Source: Candidatus Eiseniibacteriota bacterium (GTDB lineage: Bacteria > Eisenbacteria > RBG-16-71-46 > CAIMUX01 > VGJL01). Taken from it: a stretch of 64,000 bases of DNA. The stretch covers positions 704,001 through 768,000 of the forward strand of contig CAWBWI010000001.1 in NCBI GenBank assembly GCA_963792585.1. Direction: 5' to 3'. The position numbers were made by a program, and so were the translations under genes. Within the stretch, counting starts at the first letter, position 1, and every line of letters starts with the position of its first letter. The notes beneath the pieces were generated by a model. The model did not search any database, was not told where the DNA came from, and worked only from the letters and a program-made list of their open reading frames with translations. Shown here piece after piece: positions 42,712 through 63,575 of this stretch.

Positions 42712-44582
42712 ATGCTCAGACGTTCGGAACCCAGAAGGATCGGCCACCCCCGTGCCCGCGGTCTGGTGGTGTGGTTGGTCCTGATGTCGATTCCGCTCAT
42801 GGCATTCGCCGCGAAGAAGAGCTACCGGTATGAAGACGATCCCAATCGGCTCGGCATGAAGGCCGTCGATGAAAGTCGCTTCGATGATGCTCAGAAGTAC
42901 TTCGACGAGGCGATCGCAAATGAGTACCAGGTCTACAAGGCTCACTACGGTCTTGCCCAGATCAAGGCGATTCAGGGCGGCTATGGCGATGCGGAACCGC
43001 TCTACCGCCTGGCCCTGATGGAGAAGAACCAGGAGACGGGCTCCCCTGACTATCCGGAATGCCATGCGAGCCTCGGGCTCGTGCTATTGCGGCTGGGACG
43101 GGACGCCGAAGCGAAGCAGGAATTCGACCTGGCCCTGCGCGAGAAGGGGAACGTCTGGGAGGCCCAATACGGGATGGCCCGGGTGCTCATCCTCGAGCAG
43201 AAGTACGACGATGCGGCCAAGCTGCTGGAGAAGGGGTCGAAGAAGAAGGGGAAGCTCGACGGCGAGGACTACTACCGGTACGGAATGGCGCTGGTGCAGA
43301 TGGCCCAAGGAGACCTTCCGGCGGCGGAGAAGAACGCCCTGGCCGCGCTCAACCTGAATCCGAGCGACCCGGACTATGGGACGCTCGTGGCGGAGATCTA
43401 CACCCAGCGGGGCGTTCCGACCCTTGCGATCGAGGCCTACGAGAAGGCTCTCGCAACACCCGGAGTGCGGATCACGGCGCCAATTCGCCACAGCCTCGGT
43501 CTCCTCTATCAGAAGGAAGCGATCACCAATCGCGATCAGGCCATGTTCGGAAAGGCGCGCGATCAATATCAGGAAGCGGCAAAGATCGACTCCACCTTTG
43601 CGCCCGCCTGGAAGGACCTTGCCGACCTCATGCTGCTGGCCAAGCGCTACGAGGATGCGGCGGGCGGCTACCTCCGATACAGCAACTTGCGGAGGGATGA
43701 CCCCGCGGGATTCCTCGGTTTCGCCGAGGCGGCGCTCAAGCTTCGTGGCTACTCCAAGCCGGCGTACGAGGCGGCGCAGCAGGCCTTCCGGCTCGACAGC
43801 ACAACGGTCCGCAGCAGGCTGATCCTGGCCCGTTCCGCTTTCCAGGCGAAGGACCGGGGGGCCGCGGCGCGGGTCTACGGAACGGTCACGGACTCCACGC
43901 AGTTCGAAGCAAACGACTACCTGGCCATCGGCCAGATGAAACTCGAACAGAAGGACTTCGCGGCGGCCGACCGCGCGCTCATGAAGTCGGTGGCGATGGA
44001 CTCGACTCTTGCCGACGCGTACTTCTCGCTTGGCTTGCTGGATCTCAATCAGCAGAAGCCGGATTCCGCGTTGGTGCACTTCCAGAAGTCCGTGGAGCTC
44101 GCGCCCAACAACATGGGCGGCTGGCTCAACAAGGGGATCGCCAGCTTGCAGCTGAAGCAGAACAAGGATGCCGTAGCTTCGCTTCGCAGGGCCACGCAAC
44201 TCGCTCCGGACTTTGCGCAAGCGCGCGTCTACTTGGGCAACGCCCTTCTACAGGTCGATTCCCTCACGGCGGCCAGCGTCGAATTCAAGGTCGCTAGAGA
44301 GAAGGACCCCAAAACCAGGGGGCTTTGCGGGGACTCGCTTTCTGCTACCTTAAGCGAGGCGACTACGGACAGGCTGTTTCCGTGATGAAGGATGCTACGA
44401 CCGCCGACCCCAGCAACGCTGACAATTGGATGATGTTGGGTCGGGCTCTCGTGGGGAACGGGAACAACGCCGGAGCGATCGATGCCTTCAAGAAAGTGCT
44501 GGAGTTGAAGCCGGACAACAAGGATGCGAAGGATGCGATTGCCATCCTGACCGGGGCCAACAAGAGCGCGGGCGGCAAGTAG
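42712..44582 (+). CDS. Secreted tetratricopeptide-repeat protein (frameshift near 44320)
   Basis: Signal peptide, many TPRs; continues in ORF 44325..44582 (RGLAFCYL..AIDAFKKVLELKPDNKDA). Confidence 0.88.
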
Positions 44583-44615
44583 GAAGCGTCGGACCAAGAG
44601 GAGAGGGTTGAAAGC

Positions 44616-44966
44616 ATGACCTTGGACGTGGAGAAGCGCGGCGATGTTCATATCCTCAAACCTCGAAAGGACCTGAGCGGCGGAGAGGAGACGAGGGAGA
44701 TCGAGAAGGCGATTCAAGACATCATCGCTCAAGGGCCGCCGCATGTCGTCATCGACCTAGGGAAGGTCTCCTATGTGAACAGCACCGGCCTGGGGTCTCT
44801 CGTAGCGGCACACACGAGTTGTCGAAACCGTGAGGGCTGGCTTCGGCTGGCACAGATCGGCAAGAGAATCAAGAACCTGTTCCTGATCACGAAGTTGGCG
44901 TTTGTTTTCGAGACTTTCGATAGCGTCGATGAGGCCATCGAAGGCAAGGACCGCGGAGAAAAGTGA
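44616..44966 (+). CDS. STAS-domain anti-sigma factor antagonist
   Basis: VVIDLGKVSYVNSTGLGSLV (phosphoacceptor Ser), IKNLFLITKL..VFE.FDSVDEA. Confidence 0.92.
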   Translation: MTLDVEKRGDVHILKPRKDLSGGEETREIEKAIQDIIAQGPPHVVIDLGKVSYVNSTGLGSLVAAHTSCRNREGWLRLAQIGKRIKNLFLITKLAFVFETFDSVDEAIEGKDRGEK

Positions 44967-44992
44967 GCTAAGAGCTTAGCCGGAGGATTCAA

Positions 44993-45721
44993 ATGAAGGG
45001 TTACGTGTTCATCCCCATCCTGATCGTCTCGTTGCTGATCTCCCTGGCGATCTACCAGTACCTTTTGCCGGAGTTCATCAAGCTCGGCGGCTACCTTGTC
45101 CCGTTCCTCTTGATGCTCTCGATGCTCCTGCTCACGTTCATCGTCGAGAGGTTGATCACCTTGAAGAAGGCACAGGGACGCGGCGATTTCAGCGGGTTCT
45201 CCCGGGCCCTCAAGAAGTCGATCGACAGTGGGAAGATGGATGACGCCATCAATGTCTGTCGCAAGCAGGGCGGCTGCTTGGCCAATGTCGTGGGCGCCGG
45301 CCTCGAGCGCTTCAGCCAGTTGAGCAAGGCCAATCTCGAGAAGGACGAGGTCGTCGATGAGACGCGTCGCGCGATCGAAGAGGCCAACGCCCTCGAAACC
45401 CCCTTGCTCGAGCGAAATCTGATCGCCCTCTCGACGATCGCCTCGATCGCGACGATGGTCGGTCTGCTCGGCACCACGATCGGCATGATCCGCTCGTTCA
45501 AGGCGATGGGGCACGCGGGCGCCCCGGACGCGATCCAGCTGGCGGTCGGGATCTCCGAGGCGCTCATCAACACGGCCGGCGGCCTCATCATCGCTATCCT
45601 CGGAATCATCATGTACAACTTCTTCACCAACAAGGTGGACAGCTTCAACTACCAGATGGATGAGACTTCCTACGAGGTGATGGAGCTCCTGCGGCACCAG
45701 AAGGAAAGGGGCAATGTCTAA
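44993..45721 (+). CDS. exbB: MotA/TolQ/ExbB proton channel
   Basis: LSTIASIATMVGLLGTTIGMI.SF, GISEALINTAGG. Confidence 0.93.
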   Translation: MKGYVFIPILIVSLLISLAIYQYLLPEFIKLGGYLVPFLLMLSMLLLTFIVERLITLKKAQGRGDFSGFSRALKKSIDSGKMDDAINVCRKQGGCLANVVGAGLERFSQLSKANLEKDEVVDETRRAIEEANALETPLLERNLIALSTIASIATMVGLLGTTIGMIRSFKAMGHAGAPDAIQLAVGISEALINTAGGLIIAILGIIMYNFFTNKVDSFNYQMDETSYEVMELLRHQKERGNV

Positions 45722-46160
45722 GCGGCACGCCAAGCGGATCGCGGTCCGCATCGACATGACCCCAATGGTCGACGTGGCGTTCCTGCTGCTGATCTTCTTC
45801 ATGTCGACGACCCAGTTCAAGCCGCCGGAGGAGGTCGCCGTCGTCCTGCCGGCGTCGAGTTCGGAGATCAAGGTCCCGGAGACGGGAATCATCGTGATCA
45901 CGGTCAACAAGAGCGGCAAGATCTTCATCGGGGACGAGTCCGGACAGGCGGGAGAAGTGCCGAAGGACGACATCATGAACGCCATCGTCACGGCCCGCAG
46001 CCGCCGACCCACTGCGCGTGTGATCGTCAAGGGCGACAAGGATGCCCAATACGGCTTGATCGCCGACGTGATGGATGCTCTTCAGAATACGCAGACCAAC
46101 CGGTTCAACTTGATGACCGAGTTGAAGACCACGTCGGGTCCGAAGCAGAAGGAGAACTGA
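45714..46160 (+). CDS. exbD: Biopolymer transporter ExbD/TolR
   Basis: IDMTPMVDVAFLLLIFFM, IVKGDKDAQYG. Confidence 0.93.
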   Translation: MSKRHAKRIAVRIDMTPMVDVAFLLLIFFMSTTQFKPPEEVAVVLPASSSEIKVPETGIIVITVNKSGKIFIGDESGQAGEVPKDDIMNAIVTARSRRPTARVIVKGDKDAQYGLIADVMDALQNTQTNRFNLMTELKTTSGPKQKEN

Positions 46161-46164
46161 GCCC

Positions 46165-46659
46165 ATGGCGGGCATGGACGCAGCAGAACCTAAAGAACGG
46201 AAGAAGGGTTCGGGCTTACGGCGGCAGAAGCGGCGCGTCAGCATCCGAATTGACATGACGCCGATGGTCGACATCGCCTTCCTTCTGCTCATCTTCTTCA
46301 TGGTGACGACGGTCTTTCGCAAGCCCCAGGCGATGGAGGTCAACCTCCCGCCGGCCGGCGTGACGGTTCAGGTCCCTGAGTCGAACGTCATCACACTCTT
46401 CGTTCGGGCTGATGAGCGGATCTATTTCCGGAAGGCGACGGGGCCCCTGGAGTCGACGGCGATGAAGGATCTCGTGCAGTTCTTCACGGATGAGCACCGG
46501 CTCAACCCCGAGCTGATCGTCCTCGTCAAGGTTCATCGGGAAGCGCGCTATGAGACGATGGTCGACGTGATGGACGAACTCGAGCTTGCCGATATGAGCC
46601 GATTCAGCCTCGTGCCGATGCAGCCCGAGGATGTGAAGGAAGTGGAGGCTCTTCCATGA
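46165..46659 (+). CDS. exbD: Biopolymer transporter ExbD/TolR (second copy)
   Basis: IDMTPMVDIAFLLLIFFM, ARYETMVDVMDEL. Confidence 0.93.
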   Translation: MAGMDAAEPKERKKGSGLRRQKRRVSIRIDMTPMVDIAFLLLIFFMVTTVFRKPQAMEVNLPPAGVTVQVPESNVITLFVRADERIYFRKATGPLESTAMKDLVQFFTDEHRLNPELIVLVKVHREARYETMVDVMDELELADMSRFSLVPMQPEDVKEVEALP

Positions 46660-47417
46660 CGAAGGCTCCGAAGACCTACGTCACCGGGTTCGAGCACGCG
46701 GAGCACCTACCGGTCACGGGAGAATTGCATCCACTTCGGATCAGGTCGCGGCGCTTCACATTCTGGGCGACCGGCGTTGCCACGGCGTTTCACCTCGTTG
46801 CCTTCGGCGGCTGGTTCATCGCCCGCAACATGCAGAAGGAACCGGAGCGCCCTCGTGAGGTCAGAATCGTGAAGTACACCGAACTCGGAGTGCCGCCCTC
46901 GATCGCTGCGGATGCACCCCAAGCTGTGCAGGTCGCCGCGGCGGTGGCGCCTCCTTCACTCGGTGTTCCGGAACCGGTGCCGGATTTCCAGGCAACGACC
47001 AGCACGATCGCGACCCAGGACCAGCTCGCCCAGATGTTGACCCCGACGAGTCTGTCCAACCTCGACGGCGGGGGAGGAGACTCCCTCGTGGTCGATATCC
47101 CCACGGGAGACGCCGGCGGAGACAACCCGTCTCCGGACGACTTCGTGGCCGTGGAGGAGATGCCCGTTCTGATCTCCATGCCGCCGCCTGTCTACCCTGA
47201 CATGGCGCGGCAAGCGGAGGTTGAGGGAACCGTCATGGTCCGCGCGTTGGTGGGTAAGGACGGGAAGGTCCAGGACGCCTTCGTGACCGAAGGCATCCCG
47301 ATGCTCAACGATGCTGCCGTCGCGGCGTCGAAGAAGGCGGTGTTCAAACCCGCCCTCCAGCAACACAAACCCGTCGCGGTTTGGGTCCAGATCCCGATGC
47401 GCTTCACTCTCAACTGA
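46656..47417 (+). CDS. tonB: Energy transducer TonB
   Basis: TM with His, Pro-rich linker, VEEMP..YPDMARQAEVEGTV..VGKDGKV..FKPA..PV. Confidence 0.92.
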   Translation: MTKAPKTYVTGFEHAEHLPVTGELHPLRIRSRRFTFWATGVATAFHLVAFGGWFIARNMQKEPERPREVRIVKYTELGVPPSIAADAPQAVQVAAAVAPPSLGVPEPVPDFQATTSTIATQDQLAQMLTPTSLSNLDGGGGDSLVVDIPTGDAGGDNPSPDDFVAVEEMPVLISMPPPVYPDMARQAEVEGTVMVRALVGKDGKVQDAFVTEGIPMLNDAAVAASKKAVFKPALQQHKPVAVWVQIPMRFTLN

Positions 47418-50619: not shown

Positions 50620-50840
50620 GATGGGCCCTCCTGAGGCGCCGGCCCAGCCCGGCGCGCGGCCCGAGAATCCCGTTGAATTGCGAGCCTGTCAATCGCTACT
50701 TGGGATTGGAGTTGGATGGACTAGAGAAGGTGACGTAATCGTTTGTTGACAAGTCGCCAGAAGGTGCGAGAATTAGGAACAAGCCGCTCGAGCCCATATG
50801 CGGGGCATCTCCGACGGGGATGCGGCGAGGAGGCATCGTC

Positions 50841-51503
50841 GTGGCAATCACCTGGAGCAGGCGTTTCGCTCTATGCGTTGTAATATTAATGACCTCAACC
50901 AGCTGGGCGGGGGCTGCTTCGTTCTTCGACTTCTATGGTTTCGACTACTTGGATGGTCCGCCCCTCTCCGTCGGCACCGTGCTCTCCATCCCAATGTTGT
51001 TCGATCCTGTTCAACCGGATCCGGCCTTACCCCTGGATCTGGAAGGGAATGAATACACTGTGTTTGTCGGAGACCTCCAGATCAACGATGTCCAGTCCTC
51101 CGGAGGGGTCGTGATCGTGACTTTCTCGGGAGGCTTCATCCAGATCTTCGAGGACCCGGCGAAGAACTCACAGTGGACCATCGATCCGCCCAATCCGCAG
51201 GTCCCGACCACGTTCACAGACGGGACCCTGATCCTGGGAGGCGGCTTCACGGACTGCGTGATGATCTTCGACGTCGTATTCGAAACGGGGACTGTCCAGG
51301 GTCATGTCGACTTCACGACCGGGACACGTCTCGACGAACTCGATGCTCCGACCGGCTGGCTCTTCTACGGCGGGGTGACCACGAACCCCCTCGCAGGCAT
51401 CCCGTCCGGCTACGAGATGGCATGGGATCCGCAACTGATGGGTCCCGAGACTGTCCCGACGCACGCCACCACATGGGGCAAGGTTCGGGGGCTGTTCCGA
51501 TAG
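50841..51503 (+). CDS. Secreted protein with C-terminal VPTHATTWGKVRGLFR tail
   Basis: AGGAGG RBS, GTG start, signal peptide; core homologous to the downstream PEP-CTERM protein. Confidence 0.8.
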   Translation: MAITWSRRFALCVVILMTSTSWAGAASFFDFYGFDYLDGPPLSVGTVLSIPMLFDPVQPDPALPLDLEGNEYTVFVGDLQINDVQSSGGVVIVTFSGGFIQIFEDPAKNSQWTIDPPNPQVPTTFTDGTLILGGGFTDCVMIFDVVFETGTVQGHVDFTTGTRLDELDAPTGWLFYGGVTTNPLAGIPSGYEMAWDPQLMGPETVPTHATTWGKVRGLFR

Positions 51504-51564
51504 GGGCCGCTCCCGGGCGGACCTCCGACCGGAAGCGACTCGGCCAGAAGCCAAGGAGTATTCC

Positions 51565-52260
51565 ATGAAGAAATCGAACCGGAGCTGGATCCTGGTGTGT
51601 GCGGCACTCATCGCTTTCGCCGGAACCGCCGGTCCCGCGATAGCGTTTCCTCTGGTGATGGACTATACGGGATTCACGTGGAGCACCTACACCGGGGGCC
51701 AGTGGCATTTCGACGCCGTCGGGGTGTTGGACAACTTCTCCCCGGCCGTCGGAATTCCCGGGGAGACGTATACCTACTACCTCTCCAACCTGGCGCTCAA
51801 CTCGGACCAGGACTTGGGCTCCGGACTTCACCGTCGCATGTACGGGGGAGGCGAGTTCAGGATCTACGAATCGACGTCACCGGCGGACCGGCCCTACAAC
51901 TACGGCATCAATCCGCCCAACCCGACCGCTCCCGCGACCTTCACCGACGGAAACTACTGGCTTGGCGGAGAATTCTCGAGCTTCTCGCTGCTCATCGACA
52001 CGACGCGCGGCCTCGCCACCGCGACGGGACAGGGAAGCTACGTCGGGGGCAGCTACTATCAGAATCTCTCCGACACCGACCTGTTCACGTTTGCGGGGCT
52101 AACCAGGAACGATCAGGCCGGCATCCCGGTCGGCTACGAGTACGCCATCGACGGCCAGGTCAGCGCCGCTGTAACCCCCGTGCCCGAACCGTCCACGCTG
52201 GTCCTGCTCGGCACGGGTTTGCTCGGACTTTGCGCTCGCTTGCGTCCGTCCAAGAAATAG
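51565..52260 (+). CDS. PEP-CTERM sorting-domain protein
   Basis: Signal peptide; C-terminal VPEPSTLVLLGTGLLGLCARLRPSKK. Confidence 0.93.
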   Translation: MKKSNRSWILVCAALIAFAGTAGPAIAFPLVMDYTGFTWSTYTGGQWHFDAVGVLDNFSPAVGIPGETYTYYLSNLALNSDQDLGSGLHRRMYGGGEFRIYESTSPADRPYNYGINPPNPTAPATFTDGNYWLGGEFSSFSLLIDTTRGLATATGQGSYVGGSYYQNLSDTDLFTFAGLTRNDQAGIPVGYEYAIDGQVSAAVTPVPEPSTLVLLGTGLLGLCARLRPSKK

Positions 52261-52280: not shown

Positions 52281-52320
52281 GCGGGGAGACCTCCGAAGGG
52301 GCCTCCCCGCATTTCTTTGT
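52281..52320 (+). terminator. Intrinsic terminator after the PEP-CTERM gene
   Basis: GCGGGGAG..CTCCCCGC followed by ATTTCTTTGT. Confidence 0.75.
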
Positions 52321-52452
52321 TCCGGAAGAGCGCCTAATAGCTCGACCGGGCCCGCTCCAATGCCGATACTATCGAGGCTCCCGGTACGACCCGGGACGGA
52401 GATCCTCGGAGAGGGCTCCCGGGCGGTCACGGTCGGTCAGGGAGGATCTTGC

Positions 52453-55029
52453 GTGGGACCGCGTTTGAGACGGATTGCGTTGAATGCACTGGACGCGCTG
52501 CTCGTCAACGCCGCGATCCTGCTCGCCCTTCTGTTGCGTTTCGACGGCCATGTCCCCTCCGACTATCTGAGGGGCTATCTCGAGGTTTCCTACTTCGCAA
52601 CCATCGCGGCCCTGGTATTCCTGAACCTCTTCAAGGTTCACCGGACCCTCTGGAGATACGCCGGCGTGCCGACGGCGCTCGCCACGATCAACGCCCTCAC
52701 ACTCGCCTTCGCCGCGTTCTACGGCCTCAACCTCGCAATTCGCCCGCAGCCGCTGCCGCGCAGCGTGGTGATTCTCTCCTGGATCCTCTCGATCGGAGCC
52801 GTCCTTGGGATTCGCCTGTTGTGGAAGTCCCTGCGCCGCCCCGCGCGCCGGAACTCCCAAAGTGGACGGAGAATCCTCATCATCGGCGCGGGGGATGCCG
52901 GGGCGATGGTGGCGCGCGAGCTGGCGCGATCCCCGACCTACCCGGGACATCCCGTGGGCTTCGTCGACGACGATCCGAGGAAGCAGCGCTCCCGCATCGA
53001 GAGCCTGGAAGTCCTGGGCACGACATTCGATCTCCCCCGGTTGTTGTCGGAGAAGCAGATTGGAGAGGTGATCCTTTCGGCCCCGTCCGCGCCGACCCGC
53101 TTGATCCGCCAGGTCGTACGCGTGTGCCTCGATATGGGGGTGACCTGTCGAACCGTTCCTGCCCTCGCGGACTACATCGAGGGCAAGGGCGCCCTCGACC
53201 AGGTCCGCGAGGTGCAGATCGAGGACCTGCTCGGACGGGATCCGATCCAGCTCGACCTCCCGGGAATCCGGACCCGGGTGGCCGGCAAAACGGTGCTGGT
53301 CACCGGAGCGGGCGGCTCGATCGGTTCCGAGCTCTGCCGGCAACTCGCGCGCTTCTCCCCGGGCCGTCTGGTGTTGCTCGATCACAACGAGAACGGCTTG
53401 ACCTATCTGGGTCTCGAACTTCACGAGGCCTACCCGCGGCTCGACGTGCTGCTCGTGGTGGGGGACATCAAGGACGAGATCGGAATCCACGAGCTCTTCG
53501 CAGCGCAAAAGCCGCACCTCGTCTTTCATGCAGCGGCGCACAAGCATGTCAATCTGCTGGAGCGACGTCCCCGCGAGGCGATCCTCAACAACATCATGGG
53601 CACGCGCAACGTCGCGCGGGCCTGCGAGGCCGTCGAGGTCGAGACCCTGACGCTGATCTCGACCGACAAGGCAGTCAATCCTTCGAGCGTCATGGGCGCT
53701 TCAAAGCGCGTCTGCGAGATGATCGTCCAGGGAATGGCGGGGCGCGCGCACTCGACCATGGTGGCGGTCCGCTTCGGAAACGTGATCGGCTCGGAGGGCA
53801 GTGTCCTGCCAATCTTCCGACGCCAACTCGCGCGGGGCGGGCCTCTGACGGTCACCCATCCCGAGGCGAGAAGGTTCTTCATGACGATTCCCGAGGCGAG
53901 CCAGCTCGTCATTCAGGCGGCGTTGCTCGGGCAGTCGGGGGATGTCTTCCTGCTCGACATGGGAGAGCCCGTCCGGATCCTCGAGGTCGCCCGGCAACTG
54001 ATCCGCCTGAGCGGTCTCGAGCCCGATCGCGACGTGAGAATCGAGTTCATCGGGCTGCGACCGGGGGAGAAACTCGAGGAAGAGTTGCTCACGCAGATCG
54101 AGAGGACGCGGACGACCCGTCACTCGAAGATCTACAAGTGCGAGCTGGACGAGCTCGATCCGGTCTCCACCGAGCGTTCGATCGATGGATTGATCCATCT
54201 GGCCGCCCACGGCACGGCGGAAGAGATTCGCGCGGCCTTGCGCGGACTCGTGCGCGAATACAAGGAGGTAACGCCCGCTCCGCTTCCTGCAGGAAGCGCC
54301 ACGAGCGAGGAGAGCTTGCGTCCGACCGGACTCGCGCCCAGCATTCCCGAGCCGACGGGCAAACGGACGTTGGATGTCGTCGCGGCATCCGTGAGCCTTC
54401 TGCTCCTGGCGATTCCCGCCGGCCTTGCCTGGCTCCTGGTCCACGCCTCCGGTCCGGCCCAGGTCGTCTTCCAACCCGAGGAACGGATCGGGGCGAACCG
54501 CCGGCATGCGGATCGACGGAATCTCGGGGGCCGGGTCGGAATCGACCGACGGTACACGGAGCGGAGGAAACGCGGACTTCCGGGCAGGCCTTTCCTGACC
54601 TACCGGATCCGGCTCCAGGCCTCCGAACACGCCAGCCCGTTCCAGATTCGGCTCGCACGGTGGGTCGATGCTCTTCATCTCGATCGACTTCTCTACCTCT
54701 GGAGTGTCTTGCGCGGGGACATGAGCCTCGTCGGACCCTCGGCGCACCTCATCGACGGCGTGGCCTGGAAGCAGGATGCCATCAGCGCCTGGACGTTCGC
54801 GCGCCGGCCCGGCCTTACCGGCCCGTCCCAGATCCTGGGGGGCCAGGGAGAGGAAGTCATCCAGTATGATCGCTACTATGGTCGCCATGCGAATTGGCGG
54901 CTCGACATGGACGCGCTGCGCCAGGCCCTGCCTCGTCTCGTGCGCCGCCGTCCGAATGGTCCGGAACTGCACGAGCCTCCACTGGAGACTCGGACGGCAC
55001 AGGCCACGGGGGAAGGGGAGATCGGCTGA
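52453..55029 (+). CDS. CapD/PglF-like UDP-sugar 4,6-dehydratase fused to a degenerate sugar (phosphoglycosyl) transferase domain
   Basis: Four N-terminal TMs, IIGAGDAG, EDLLGR, VTGAGGSIGSEL, FHAAAHKHV, ISTDKAV, MGASKR, RFGNV.GS.GSV; C-terminal KRTLDV..LRGDMSLVGP..RPGLTG..Q..YDRYY. Confidence 0.9.
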   Translation: MGPRLRRIALNALDALLVNAAILLALLLRFDGHVPSDYLRGYLEVSYFATIAALVFLNLFKVHRTLWRYAGVPTALATINALTLAFAAFYGLNLAIRPQPLPRSVVILSWILSIGAVLGIRLLWKSLRRPARRNSQSGRRILIIGAGDAGAMVARELARSPTYPGHPVGFVDDDPRKQRSRIESLEVLGTTFDLPRLLSEKQIGEVILSAPSAPTRLIRQVVRVCLDMGVTCRTVPALADYIEGKGALDQVREVQIEDLLGRDPIQLDLPGIRTRVAGKTVLVTGAGGSIGSELCRQLARFSPGRLVLLDHNENGLTYLGLELHEAYPRLDVLLVVGDIKDEIGIHELFAAQKPHLVFHAAAHKHVNLLERRPREAILNNIMGTRNVARACEAVEVETLTLISTDKAVNPSSVMGASKRVCEMIVQGMAGRAHSTMVAVRFGNVIGSEGSVLPIFRRQLARGGPLTVTHPEARRFFMTIPEASQLVIQAALLGQSGDVFLLDMGEPVRILEVARQLIRLSGLEPDRDVRIEFIGLRPGEKLEEELLTQIERTRTTRHSKIYKCELDELDPVSTERSIDGLIHLAAHGTAEEIRAALRGLVREYKEVTPAPLPAGSATSEESLRPTGLAPSIPEPTGKRTLDVVAASVSLLLLAIPAGLAWLLVHASGPAQVVFQPEERIGANRRHADRRNLGGRVGIDRRYTERRKRGLPGRPFLTYRIRLQASEHASPFQIRLARWVDALHLDRLLYLWSVLRGDMSLVGPSAHLIDGVAWKQDAISAWTFARRPGLTGPSQILGGQGEEVIQYDRYYGRHANWRLDMDALRQALPRLVRRRPNGPELHEPPLETRTAQATGEGEIG

Positions 55030-58242: not shown

Positions 58243-59094
58243 ATGAGCGTCGCGGGGGTGCGCGGCGCGAATGACGTCGGAGGGCGGAATCTCCGCCTGG
58301 TGGGCTGGGCCATAGCCATTCTGGGACTCGCCCTGGCCTACAGCGGTACTGCCAAGATCCTGTTCCAGGTCTGGCGCCAAAATCAGAACTACTCGCACGG
58401 ATTCCTCATTCCTCCCGTGGCAGCTTGGTTGATTTGGAGGGAGCGGGCATATCTGCGCACCGCTGAGGGAGGCGGCTCGTGGCTGGGCATCCTCCTGCTG
58501 TTCCCCGCCCTGCTCCTGCAACTCGCCGGTTTGCGGGGCGACGTCGCGACCCTTCAGGGGATGTCGCTCATCCTGGCCGTCGCGGGTATCGTCCTGCAGT
58601 TGCGCGGACCGCGCGTCATGGCTCGAATCGCTTTTCCGATCGCCTTTCTCGTATTCATGATCCCAACCCTCCCGCTCTTCATGAACACGCTGAGCTTCAA
58701 GCTCAAGCTCCTCGCGGCTCGAGGAGCGATTTCGATCAGCCACGCGCTGGGGATCATGGTCCAGCGGGACGGGGTCAACCTGGTCTTCCCGGGCGGCGTG
58801 CTGAGCGTGGAGAACGCCTGCTCCGGCCTCCGATCGCTCGTCGCCTTGATGGCGCTCGGCGCGCTCTTTGCGTACTTGGCGCAGGGGCCGCTCTGGAAGC
58901 GGATTCTCCTCTTCGCGCTGGCCCTTCCGATCGCCGTGCTGGCGAATGTCATCCGCATCTCTGCGCTTTGCGTCTACGCGGGCATGGGAGACGTTCATGG
59001 GGCAGCGGGGCTGTTCCACGAGGTCGGGGGCTTCGCCCTCTTCGGAATCGCCTTCCTGTTGCTGCTCCTCTGCCGAAGGGTGCTCCGGTGCTAG
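58243..59094 (+). CDS. Exosortase (EpsH family)
   Basis: W....YSHGFLIP, VENACSGLRS (Cys), ANVIRI (Arg), FHE (His). Confidence 0.94.
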   Translation: MSVAGVRGANDVGGRNLRLVGWAIAILGLALAYSGTAKILFQVWRQNQNYSHGFLIPPVAAWLIWRERAYLRTAEGGGSWLGILLLFPALLLQLAGLRGDVATLQGMSLILAVAGIVLQLRGPRVMARIAFPIAFLVFMIPTLPLFMNTLSFKLKLLAARGAISISHALGIMVQRDGVNLVFPGGVLSVENACSGLRSLVALMALGALFAYLAQGPLWKRILLFALALPIAVLANVIRISALCVYAGMGDVHGAAGLFHEVGGFALFGIAFLLLLLCRRVLRC

Positions 59095-59714
59095 CCCGCG
59101 CGGCCCGCATTCTCGCCCCCGGTCTCCTGCTCTGCCTCCTCGGGGCCTATCGCGTGGCGTTTCCTCCCACACCAGGCGCGGAGAGCCACCTGAGAGAGTT
59201 GCCGATGGTCCTGCTCGGCCTTCCCGGAACCGACGTACCCGCAGACCGGGCGATTCTGGACGACCTCGAGTCGAGCGACATGTTGATTCGGGATTACCGA
59301 CGGCCGGACGGCAATCCCGTCTGGGTCGTCCTGATCTACTTCGTGAATACACGCCTCGGGGGTCACGACCCGCAGCTCTGCTACCGGAGTCAGGGATTTC
59401 ACACGTCGGACTTGCCCGACCTGCGAGTCCCGGGTGGAATGTCGGGTCTGGTGGCGGAGAGCTTCCTGGCGAGTAAGGCCGGGCGTGCAGAGCGTGTGGC
59501 AACCTTCTGGTATGCCCCCGGCGGTAGGATCCTGCCGGACGTCGAGCAGTATCGTGGGCGGCTCTTTCTGCAGGGCCTTCGAGAGAATCGTACCTACGGC
59601 GTCTTCGTCCGGATCTCGACGATTGAGACTCCGCGGGCGGGTGAGGCCGAAGAGTGGAACGCCCGGTTCGCCGCGGAGCTTGCGCGGCGGCTCCCGGGCT
59701 TGATCCGGGAATAG
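59088..59714 (+). CDS. EpsI family exosortase-associated protein
   Basis: L.ELP..L...G.D, R.Y..P, HDPQLCY.SQG, FWY, FVRIS; follows the exosortase. Confidence 0.85.
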   Translation: MLARAARILAPGLLLCLLGAYRVAFPPTPGAESHLRELPMVLLGLPGTDVPADRAILDDLESSDMLIRDYRRPDGNPVWVVLIYFVNTRLGGHDPQLCYRSQGFHTSDLPDLRVPGGMSGLVAESFLASKAGRAERVATFWYAPGGRILPDVEQYRGRLFLQGLRENRTYGVFVRISTIETPRAGEAEEWNARFAAELARRLPGLIRE

Positions 59715-62114: not shown

Positions 62115-63575
62115 ATGATGAGTCTGCTGATCTGGATCGGAGCCGGACTGCTCCTCTGCCTCGTCGGCGGGTTCGCGGCGGCCGTTCGCCCGAGCCGGTC
62201 CAGCCTTTGGTTTCTGATCGCCACCCTGGGATTCGGTCTTTGTTGTTGGTTCCTCGGGATCCTAGGTCTCGACGCGCCGCCCCTCGGCCGGGCGATCTGG
62301 ACGAGGCTACTCTGGAGCACGCTCGTGCTGACCGTGCCCTCCTGGATCGCGTTTTCCAATGCCTTTGGACGGGGCGAGAACGTGGGCCGAAGCCGGGGGC
62401 AGCGGCCCCTGCTCGTCTTCTTCTGGCTCGGCGCCCTCATTGTCCTTGCGCTCGGGTTGGCGCGCCCGCCGATCGAGTACGAAGCCGCGAGCAAGCTCAT
62501 CGAACTCCGCCATCCGATGGGGCGTTGGGTGGTCATCTATGCGTTGGTGGGGCTCATCCTCGCTCTCTGGAATCTCCATGCGACGCTCGAGACGGCCCGC
62601 CGTGCGGGCAAGCGCCGCACAGCTTCTGCAATCTACGCGCTCGTTCCCCTGGTCGTGACCGGCATCTACCTGCTCGCCGACGTGCTCCTCTATGGGCAGC
62701 AGTGGAGGGCCAAGACGATCCTTCTCGTCCCCGCGGTCGTGGTCTCGATGGTCACCTTCGTGCTCGTCATGGGGCGCCGGCGTATTGCCGACCTCGGGGG
62801 AGCCTCTGGCCGACCGGTCGTGTACTCATCGCTGGTTCTGACCTCGCTGGGGTTTCTTTTCGTGACCATGGCGTTCGTGGCGCAGGTGCTCCGGATGACG
62901 GGCGTGGTCGCCGGACGATGGTACGAGCCGGCCATCGCGGCCGGTCTGATCCTCATCTTTGCGTTGACGATCTTTCCGGGCATCCGGGAGGAACTGCGCA
63001 GCTTCGCAGACCGTAACCTCAGCGTCTCCCGGTTCGAATACCGAACCCTCTGGCAACGCTTGAACATCGCCCTCTCCGCCGCCGGTGACATCGAGGATCT
63101 GGCCATCTCGCTCCACGACTTCCTCCGATCGATCTTCGGGCCCATCCGGATGCAACTCTGGGTGATCGCCCCGGACCACGCTTCCCTGGTCCCGATCGCC
63201 GGGGAACATGCGCAAGAGCTCCGCGATGAGAACCCCCTCGTGCGGGCCGTCCGCGACCGGCCCGACCCGGTCCTGATCACCGGGGAGGCGTCGCGGGTCG
63301 ACGAGATCCCTCTCCACGTCGCCTGCGAGGAAATGAGCCAACGCTATGGGCTGCGGGTCTTCTTCCCGATCCACGCCGGCGGAGACCTGGTCGGAATCTT
63401 GGCGTGCGGTTCGGGCGGCAGCCGGGTGCTCCATCCGGAGGACATCGAGCTTCTCCGCACGGTCACCGAGCACCTCGGCGGTGTCCTTGGAGTTCGGGGA
63501 TGGAACGCTCCGCTACGCGATCCCGCGGCAACGCCGCCGGCTATCGGGCGGAGTCACGGCGGGGTCGAAGCATGA
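62115..63575 (+). CDS. PrsK-like multi-TM sensor plus GAF domain, without a histidine kinase domain
   Basis: Many TMs, NLHATL, VVYSSL, RFEYR..W motifs resembling the PrsK N-terminus; GAF (FPI..GGDLVG..EDIELL); stop before any H-box. Confidence 0.68.
   Translation: MMSLLIWIGAGLLLCLVGGFAAAVRPSRSSLWFLIATLGFGLCCWFLGILGLDAPPLGRAIWTRLLWSTLVLTVPSWIAFSNAFGRGENVGRSRGQRPLLVFFWLGALIVLALGLARPPIEYEAASKLIELRHPMGRWVVIYALVGLILALWNLHATLETARRAGKRRTASAIYALVPLVVTGIYLLADVLLYGQQWRAKTILLVPAVVVSMVTFVLVMGRRRIADLGGASGRPVVYSSLVLTSLGFLFVTMAFVAQVLRMTGVVAGRWYEPAIAAGLILIFALTIFPGIREELRSFADRNLSVSRFEYRTLWQRLNIALSAAGDIEDLAISLHDFLRSIFGPIRMQLWVIAPDHASLVPIAGEHAQELRDENPLVRAVRDRPDPVLITGEASRVDEIPLHVACEEMSQRYGLRVFFPIHAGGDLVGILACGSGGSRVLHPEDIELLRTVTEHLGGVLGVRGWNAPLRDPAATPPAIGRSHGGVEA

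Follow-up and report, generated by a model that had tools for sequence, protein, structure and literature searches.

The TWG tail, a C-terminal module of mostly small proteins in Eisenbacteria and other phyla, and its exchange with type IX and PEP-CTERM signals

Among described sorting signals, two kinds come closest to the TWG tail, a 17-residue C-terminal peptide containing the residues T-W-G that ends one of two adjacent paralogous genes in a 64,000-nucleotide stretch of a Candidatus Eiseniibacteriota genome (contig CAWBWI010000001.1, positions 704,001 to 768,000 of the forward strand; this whole stretch is the window below, and coordinates without a contig label refer to it). The first kind comprises PEP-CTERM and other tripartite signals (LPXTG, PGF-CTERM, GlyGly-CTERM, and MYXO-CTERM), which, going by the available text of Haft (bioRxiv 10.1101/2023.06.07.544157), resemble the TWG tail in being short, many-to-one C-terminal modules with a basic end that occur on unrelated secreted proteins. 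The PEP-CTERM-type signals contain a transmembrane (TM) helix, whereas the TWG tail has none and is independent of exosortase; there is no mention of TWG, Eisenbacteria, or Poribacteria in the available text of that preprint.

The second kind is the type A C-terminal domain (CTD) of type IX secretion systems (T9SS; models TIGR04183/PF18962 and the FlgD_ig-like PF13860), including the short CTDs of Prevotella intermedia. The CTD also lies C-terminally behind a Sec signal peptide and a linker and is without a TM segment. According to the accessible parts of PMC11969387, its cleavage favours G, A, or S after the cut, and short CTDs of 40–55 residues exist, which are beta-sheets. In the accessible parts of three other papers, the last 22 CTD residues are sufficient to export green fluorescent protein (PMC4804311), a near-invariant Lys near the CTD end touches PorV (PMC10994853), and the CTD is described as required, unlike short signals (PMC11285876). 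CTDs and TWG tails both have a basic residue 5–6 positions from the end (K/R at -6 in 133 of 137 pattern-fitting ends among the 285 terminal CTDs of this genome), and both are found on the same cores, at the same junctions, and in the same genomes. The two differ in that the CTD is 40–100 residues of beta-sheet with no signature similarity to the TWG tail, which occurs almost only on small cargo. Lacking both the TM segment of PEP-CTERM-type signals and the beta-sheet of CTDs, the TWG tail belongs to neither class.

C-terminal amphipathic helices that target membranes are known in MinD, FtsA, and E. coli PBP5. We take these to be like the TWG tail in that they are terminal, basic, and ∼10 residues long with an aromatic-aliphatic face; they presumably stay within one protein family, whereas the TWG tail is common to dozens of families, its W and K hardly vary, and the segment upstream of it is fixed. 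NCBIfam 20.0 and Pfam contain no model for the tail dialects tested, and a literature search that lay outside subscription journals and supplements found no description of the motif. New in this work are a three-way exchange of tails supported by a tree, independence from exosortase, a bias in cargo size, a single-copy carrier in Zixibacteria, and a dialect in Poribacteria.

The tail as a C-terminal module of unrelated proteins

The window pair consists of the following features.

50841..51503, + strand: TWG-tailed protein, 220 amino acids from a GTG start (a database-called protein), with a signal peptide at about residues 1–25, a predicted 8-stranded beta-barrel core at 28–200, a linker, and the tail
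51453..51500, + strand: TWG tail (residues 205–220), a fixed-register V-P-T segment followed by T-T-W-G-K-V-R-G-L-F-R, with a predicted helix at 212–218
51565..52260, + strand: PEP-CTERM paralogue with the same barrel core, 231 amino acids
52180..52257, + strand: PEP-CTERM sorting signal (VPEP, hydrophobic segment, basic end), above the cut-offs of TIGR02595 and PF07589

The two proteins are 35% identical over 137 amino acids (E 2e-20, BLASTP), and this alignment covers all four of the motif pairs from which a preliminary description of the window had read them as paralogues with a shared core. The same description was right that the second paralogue ends in PEP-CTERM: its signal exceeds both curated cut-offs (TIGR02595, 21.9 against 16; PF07589, 29.6 against 20.7), and the protein has the PEP motif, TM segment, and basic end in a genome that encodes an exosortase. 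The TWG protein has no Pfam or NCBIfam match at E ≤ 1.

A six-frame translation of the genome was searched with a stop-anchored pattern, [ST]WGx[IVLM][KR] placed 4–5 residues from the stop. This pattern precedes the stop in 113 reading frames, compared with 0.66 expected from its internal rate (31 matches in 8.1 million positions); relaxing it to WG alone gave 105 matches, mostly spurious. The window tail reads x-[P/A/G/S]-[V/T]-xx-[T/S]-[T/S]-W-G-x-[I/V/L]-[K/R]-xx-[Y/F]-R as a pattern, and the 106 copies of canonical length give the consensus [TV]-P-[TVI]-x-x-[TS]-[TS]-W-G-x-[IVL]-[KR]-x-L-[YF]-R. With the one frame that lacks the aromatic residue set aside, the remaining 112 tailed cores fell into 42 single-linkage clusters, the largest of which holds 60 members and is partly chained by a Cys-rich repeat. 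Signal-peptide-like starts, called with a crude detector, are present in 80 of the 105 TWG frames of at least 120 amino acids, in 168 of 265 CTD frames, and in 453 of 2162 control genes; several of the TWG frames in which none was detected look frameshifted or late-started. Among 65 tailed proteins of other genomes (part of a set of 116), the Pfam matches are to beta-helix, LTD, CBM20, CBM96, NHL, CHRD, PPC, LamG, and DUF7450, and most proteins have no match.

These data show that the TWG tail is a strictly C-terminal module on more than 100 unrelated, mostly small proteins, and it is very probably a modular targeting signal of some kind. The modularity that had been proposed from the window pair, with co-occurrence of signal peptides and unrelated domains, is thus found genome-wide, and the motif is not restricted to the barrel family. 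The proposed lack of a TM segment also holds for every TWG tail (maximum 19-residue hydropathy of 1.49 within the last 35 amino acids).

Within this genome, the basic position is K in 71 and R in 35 of the 106 tails. In the barrel family, where 118 tails were picked by core only, W is present in 114, G in 108, and K in 117; the anchoring rule imposed K/R, not W. A tail profile run over this genome found no internal or repeated copies in real genes and four copies with slightly longer ends; up to ∼8 extra residues follow the tail in some members, and the free C terminus is not fixed. A CTD profile matches 0 of the 113 TWG frames. The tail has a net charge of +2.3 and a helical moment of 0.447 at 100 degrees, compared with a shuffled maximum of 0.423; its hydrophobic moment is larger at 170–180 degrees (0.62–0.65), and this measure does not tell helix from strand.

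An AlphaFold model of the 220-residue protein (111-row alignment) has a mean predicted local distance difference test score (pLDDT) of 93, with an all-beta core at 28–200, a looser linker (pLDDT ∼73), and a helix at 212–218 (pLDDT ∼83). The model of an unrelated protein, the Zixibacteria carrier described below, also has a helix after its beta-domain, at lower confidence (pLDDT 59–73). Because the helix follows the beta-domain in these two unrelated models, the TWG tail is predicted to sit outside the folded core as a separate helix and not, as had been considered at the outset, to form part of it. The folds nearest to the modelled core are AOC/dirigent/DUF3224-like barrels (Z 9.7, root mean square deviation 3.2, 119 aligned residues). 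Its predicted fold is like those of the AOC, dirigent, DUF3224, and AbyU-like 8-stranded beta-barrels, from which the window cores differ in sequence (identity 5–10%), and outer-membrane barrels score within ∼1 Z; function cannot be carried over from this predicted likeness. Foldseek returned no match at E ≤ 0.001 for either model, the Zixibacteria domain weakly resembling prealbumin-like sandwiches, and in the ESM Atlas the tail alone gave nothing usable and the whole protein matched hypothetical clusters only.

TWG cargo has a median length of 198 amino acids, with 4 of 80 proteins over 500, compared with a median of 566 for CTD cargo, of which 96 of 170 exceed 500 and 25 of 170 are under 300 amino acids. 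Per 100 amino acids, TWG cargo has a net acidity of +9.3, compared with +6.0 in CTD cargo and +1.3 in the other genes that bear a signal. The number of strict matches in this genome (101) is the highest among the genomes searched; the genome is 84% complete. Tandem arrays of TWG-tailed genes at C3:409163-416179, C6:620983-667166, and C6:728885-733554 hold paralogues and unrelated cores side by side; three tandem lipoproteins at C2:291757-293914 (lipoboxes by eye) end in TWG tails, as does a thioredoxin-fold-looking protein at C2:319467-320726.

Exchange of the tail with the CTD and with PEP-CTERM

A profile of the barrel core with the tails removed gave 413 matches, and tail types were read for the best 150. 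These 150 comprise 109 canonical and 10 variant TWG tails, 14 T9SS CTDs, 2 PEP-CTERM signals, 11 truncated ends, and 4 unclear ones. One of the 14 CTD forms has its CTD directly after the core and 13 have it after extra domains; among these best 150 of 413, every CTD form is longer than 300 amino acids and no TWG form is. A quick IQ-TREE tree was built from 126 cores, with truncated and unclear rows left out and support taken from the Shimodaira–Hasegawa-like approximate likelihood ratio test (SH-aLRT) without bootstrap. On this tree, the three PEP-CTERM forms, including the window gene, make up one clade (SH-aLRT 99), and the CTD label needs 7 changes, of which at least 5 are forced by well-supported branches.

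Within this genome, 61 of the 112 TWG cores match the core of a CTD protein, and 18 TWG cores align with CTD proteins up to the junction (13 CTD proteins, 3 families); among the 10 PEP-CTERM proteins, only 1 has a core in common with a TWG protein. In addition, an open reading frame at C3:1272738-1273193 (− strand) encodes a signal peptide, then a stand-alone CTD-like domain without the terminal Lys strand, and then a TWG tail. The usual exchange partner of the TWG tail is the T9SS CTD and PEP-CTERM is a rare one, the PEP-CTERM swap having happened once in the barrel family. Of the earlier proposal that the tail is interchangeable with known sorting signals, the interchangeability itself stands, with at least 5 switches to or from the CTD and one involving PEP-CTERM; PEP-CTERM, the partner seen in the window pair, is the uncommon one, its forms amounting to one clade (2 of the best 150 plus the window gene). 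These results suggest that these bacteria use three interchangeable addresses (TWG, CTD, and PEP-CTERM) for the same protein domains.

The segment upstream of the helix is kept in register, although no search pattern selected for it. [GASP][VITA] stands at -5 in 94 of 111 tails of this genome, 96 of 112 tails of the barrel family, and 103 of 133 loci, compared with 10–14 expected. Of the 112 barrel-family tails, 26 have the small-residue form [GAS][VIT][ED] at -5 (0.4 expected), as do 19 of 133 loci (0.7 expected); in the Poribacteria-type tails it stands at -10, in 33 of 123 (0.6 expected). This small-residue form is like the cleavage motif of the T9SS CTD; in this genome it stands in 1 of 111 tails, and Pro often replaces the small residue at the would-be cut.

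Taxonomic range, secretion machinery, and the window locus

The stop-anchored pattern is present in 162 of 172 Eisenbacteria genomes (a reversed-pattern control gave 0–2 matches per genome). Seven of the 10 strict-negative Eisenbacteria were examined; four have dialect or extended tails (G016, G049, G143, and G146), and in the other three (G141, G144, and G157) nothing convincing was seen. A somewhat wider pattern matches 101 of 101 genomes of the Krumholzibacteriota phylum, 9 of 9 of a small phylum, and, as a single copy, 30 of 81 Zixibacteria; no search for variant tails covered the other 51. A strict scan across all species gave at least 125 loci, and its 80 titled rows include 27 Eisenbacteria, 4 Krumholzibacteria, 5 Latescibacteria, 3 Gemmatimonadota, 1 Zixibacteria, and 1 Acidobacteriota. 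A Sulfurimonas-titled match (L034) is a chance match. Four viral contigs (L134-L137) hold TWG-tailed open reading frames, most with signal-peptide-like starts and one with LamG, which may be phage cargo or host flanks. In family f18 (L021, L141-L165), a lamin-tail-domain protein keeps the tail in conserved synteny in genomes with only 1–5 tails.

In Zixibacteria, the tail is found on one protein of ∼135 amino acids, encoded directly after rex in 9 of 10 loci. This carrier (L189-L198, e.g. L194:10074-10478) is a single-copy secreted protein with one beta-domain and the ending TWGKIKALFK, and anti-sigma-factor-antagonist-like genes often come after its gene. Each of the 120 homologues listed ends in TWG[KR]IK[AG]LF[KRQ], in a search whose query included the tail, and the last 10 residues are 98% conserved compared with 62% for the core. 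A Poribacteria-type dialect, AV[E/S/D]PxGKLATTW[A/G]x[L/I/V]K, lies at most 10 residues from the stop in 123 of 128 metagenome frames and ends 0–3 residues past the Lys in 108 of the 128; 5 of the 9 dialect clusters looked up are named Poribacteria.

Besides its CTDs, this genome has 8 PorV-family genes over the cut-off, a SprA-like gene, and PorU (570.9 against a cut-off of 420). The SprA-like gene (C4:17198-21309, L168) is split over several frames, probably by assembly errors, relatives having open frames of ∼2000 amino acids; several TWG and PorV-family genes likewise look frameshifted. For one PorV-family gene, 30 of 31 genomes have a single-copy orthologue, which follows porU in several relatives. 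Other PorV-family paralogues (L170, L173, and L174) share their gene blocks with a CTD protein and a TonB-dependent-receptor-like gene (the latter scanned for L173), which suggests cargo-specific carriers. Co-folding of the PorV orthologue, 1 of 8 PorV-family candidates, with tail residues 191–220 gave a score of 0.00 and a mark of 0.32, the partner fold being uncertain, and speaks neither for nor against this pairing. GldM was found in 0 of 20 genomes of four phyla that have SprA, PorV, and PorU, in a search for which the control set was also silent; the T9SS of these four phyla may be driven by a different energiser.

Among 55 selected genomes (21 of the same phylum and 9, 5, and 20 from three others), SprA_N is present in 53, PorU in 54, a secretin in 55, and an exosortase in 42. 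Nine of the 13 genomes without exosortase hold 20–60 tails, and four of these nine are 97–100% complete; because such tail-rich genomes lack exosortase, dependence of the TWG tail on this enzyme is rejected. Clustering of the neighbours of 110 tail loci gave local synteny only (an ABC permease and a histidine kinase in f18, and rex in Zixibacteria) and no sorting machine. The earlier proposal that the tail has machinery of its own may still hold but is not supported in that form, with no conserved neighbouring machinery found at these loci and a T9SS-like machine in nearly every carrier genome.

The remaining features of the window locus are as follows.

50746..50773, + strand: sigma-70-like promoter upstream of the pair (TTGACA-16-GAGAAT, extended -10 TG; consensus match only)
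52281..52310, + strand: G+C-rich hairpin followed by a T-rich run, a likely terminator between the pair and the exopolysaccharide (EPS) genes, from folding energy
58243..59094, + strand: exosortase (TIGR02602, 183.5 against 105.55; PF09721, 219 bits), ∼6 kb downstream of the pair
59091..59714, + strand: EpsI-family exosortase-associated protein (TIGR02914, 55.1 against 42.8)

The exosortase, EpsI, and EPS genes are all 3' of the pair, the exosortase at the distance given in the preliminary description, and a second copy of exosortase is present on contig C6. The exosortase at 58243..59094 is likely the processor of the PEP-CTERM paralogue and not of the TWG tail. The promoter-like site has 10 of 12 matches (0.3 sites expected from shuffles, 1 found), and the hairpin has a folding energy of -26.3 kcal/mol (z -2.65; 4 of 200 shuffles equally good), with no call there in a strict terminator scan. 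A link between the tail and the EPS made by this locus, which had been suggested, is local and not a general one: exosortase is absent from 13 of the 55 genomes, and the pair has a promoter-like site of its own and is set off from the EPS genes by a hairpin. Contigs from 4 of 7 RNA runs, ∼93–94% identical, span both genes in the same order; the runs contained small shares only, library DNA is a possible source, and transcription is not established. Elsewhere in the window are a tetratricopeptide-repeat protein followed by ExbB/ExbD/ExbD/TonB-like genes (42712-47417, by eye), a possible energising module; an 889-residue nucleotide-sugar dehydratase fused to a bacterial sugar transferase domain (52360-55029); and a possibly split PrsK-like sensor that matches the N-terminal part of its model only (62115-63575).

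Candidate readers of the tail and what they would mean

The best explanation that we can offer, and one that we rate as evenly poised between right and wrong, is that the TWG tail is a minimal helical signal for small Sec-exported cargo that is read by the SprA/PorV/PorU machinery and replaces the 70–100-residue CTD. TWG cargo would leave the cytoplasm by Sec export; once in the periplasm, its tail helix would be caught by a PorV-family carrier or by the translocon, and the bound cargo would cross the outer membrane to the cell surface. The predicted helix would span ∼8–10 residues, one face carrying W, I/V, L, and Y/F, and would include a near-invariant Lys. Ahead of it, x-[G/A/S/P]-V-[E/D] may be a vestigial or working PorU site, open to cleavage where the small residue is kept and probably left uncut where, as in this genome, Pro stands in its place. 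The PEP-CTERM paralogue would be a derived form that arose when one barrel gene was re-addressed, a single time, to the exosortase route.

In its signal peptides, acidity, and domains (beta-helix, LamG, LTD, CBM, NHL, CHRD, and PPC), TWG cargo resembles T9SS cargo. Most TWG proteins have the signal peptide expected of T9SS cargo, as called by the crude detector, and by position the conserved Lys near the C terminus. The three lipoproteins that carry the tail, already lipid-anchored, fit export better than anchoring. More tentatively, and with somewhat less than even confidence, we propose a third class of type IX signal, in which a fold-free 17-residue peptide (a PorU-type site plus a short helix) alone would drive outer-membrane export via SprA and a PorV-family carrier, in a T9SS without a recognisable GldM motor that would be common to Eisenbacteria, Krumholzibacteriota, Zixibacteria, and Poribacteria, cargo being re-routed among TWG, CTD, and PEP-CTERM by tail swapping.

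Several observations weigh against a T9SS reader. Even the shortest known T9SS CTDs are 40–55-residue beta-sheets, whereas the TWG tail has 17 residues and a predicted helix. A wide translocon would not be expected to favour small cargo so strongly, and this size bias could indicate a different route. That two tails exchange on the same cores shows at most that they lead to the same destination, not that one machine reads both, and the junction swaps within this genome are confined to 3 families, one of them chained by a shared Cys-rich repeat. The small-residue form needed for cleavage is present in 1 of 111 tails of this genome, compared with 31 for the Pro form. Co-occurrence with T9SS does not discriminate, a secretin being equally present in all 55 genomes; SprA and PorU are also kept in 10 of 10 Zixibacteria that lack the strict motif, and no genome was found with the tail but no T9SS, or with both lost.

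Of the alternatives, the one that survives best, possible but unlikely, is a non-covalent docking peptide with a dockerin-like role, which would bind a conserved surface or periplasmic protein (a lattice, a scaffold, or a CTD-bearing carrier) and leave the cargo tethered or piggy-backed. The sequence-specific conservation of W, G, and K in the barrel family and of the last 10 residues in Zixibacteria would suit such a peptide, as would the variable distance to the C terminus, a Pro form that would resist cleavage, and small cargo, which suits passengers. Opposing this, no conserved neighbouring scaffold was found at the 110 loci, no internal or repeated tail copies were found in this genome, and a tail that trades places with two covalent sorting signals at one and the same junction looks more like an address than like an add-on binding module.

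We also consider it unlikely that the tail is a short amphipathic in-plane anchor on the periplasmic face of a membrane, with no protein reader. The helix predicted in two unrelated proteins, the positive charge, and a helical moment above that of shuffles are consistent with such an anchor, and anchoring would parallel PEP-CTERM; however, near-invariant W and K across several phyla exceed the needs of amphipathy, the upstream segment is in fixed register, lipoproteins also carry the tail, the Poribacteria dialect often ends almost at the Lys, and the moment, being larger at 170–180 degrees, is not specific to a helix. A dedicated machine with no relation to T9SS, whether a peptidase or translocon or a type IV pilus or type II secretin, would account for the limit on cargo size and for a secretin in every one of the 55 genomes, yet it is distinctly unlikely: no candidate gene was found next to the tail genes, and the single secretin of the tail-richest genome searched, which is this one at its stated completeness, belongs to an operon that by eye resembles pilMNOPQ. 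That the tail is an exosortase-linked variant for the window EPS locus is hardly credible, since the adjoining EPS/exosortase cluster and a weak match of the barrel core to the model of the flocculation protein PepA (E 0.016 for the core alone, E 8e-6 over residues 34–230 including the tail) are set against the absence of a TM segment, the nine tail-rich genomes without exosortase, and relatives in which the same tandem pair has the TWG tail on both genes.

In several uncultured phyla, the tail marks out tens to more than 100 "hypothetical" proteins in each genome as cargo that is likely bound for the envelope or surface. Of the test substrates, the cleanest is the Zixibacteria carrier, with its single copy and 135 residues, which makes the question testable with simple tail-swap reporters. 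If T9SS reads the tail, a short helix can replace a folded CTD, which bears on how SprA and PorV recognise cargo. Should the proposed third class of signal prove true, the view that T9SS targeting needs a beta-sheet domain would be overturned, and a minimal surface-display tag would be gained.
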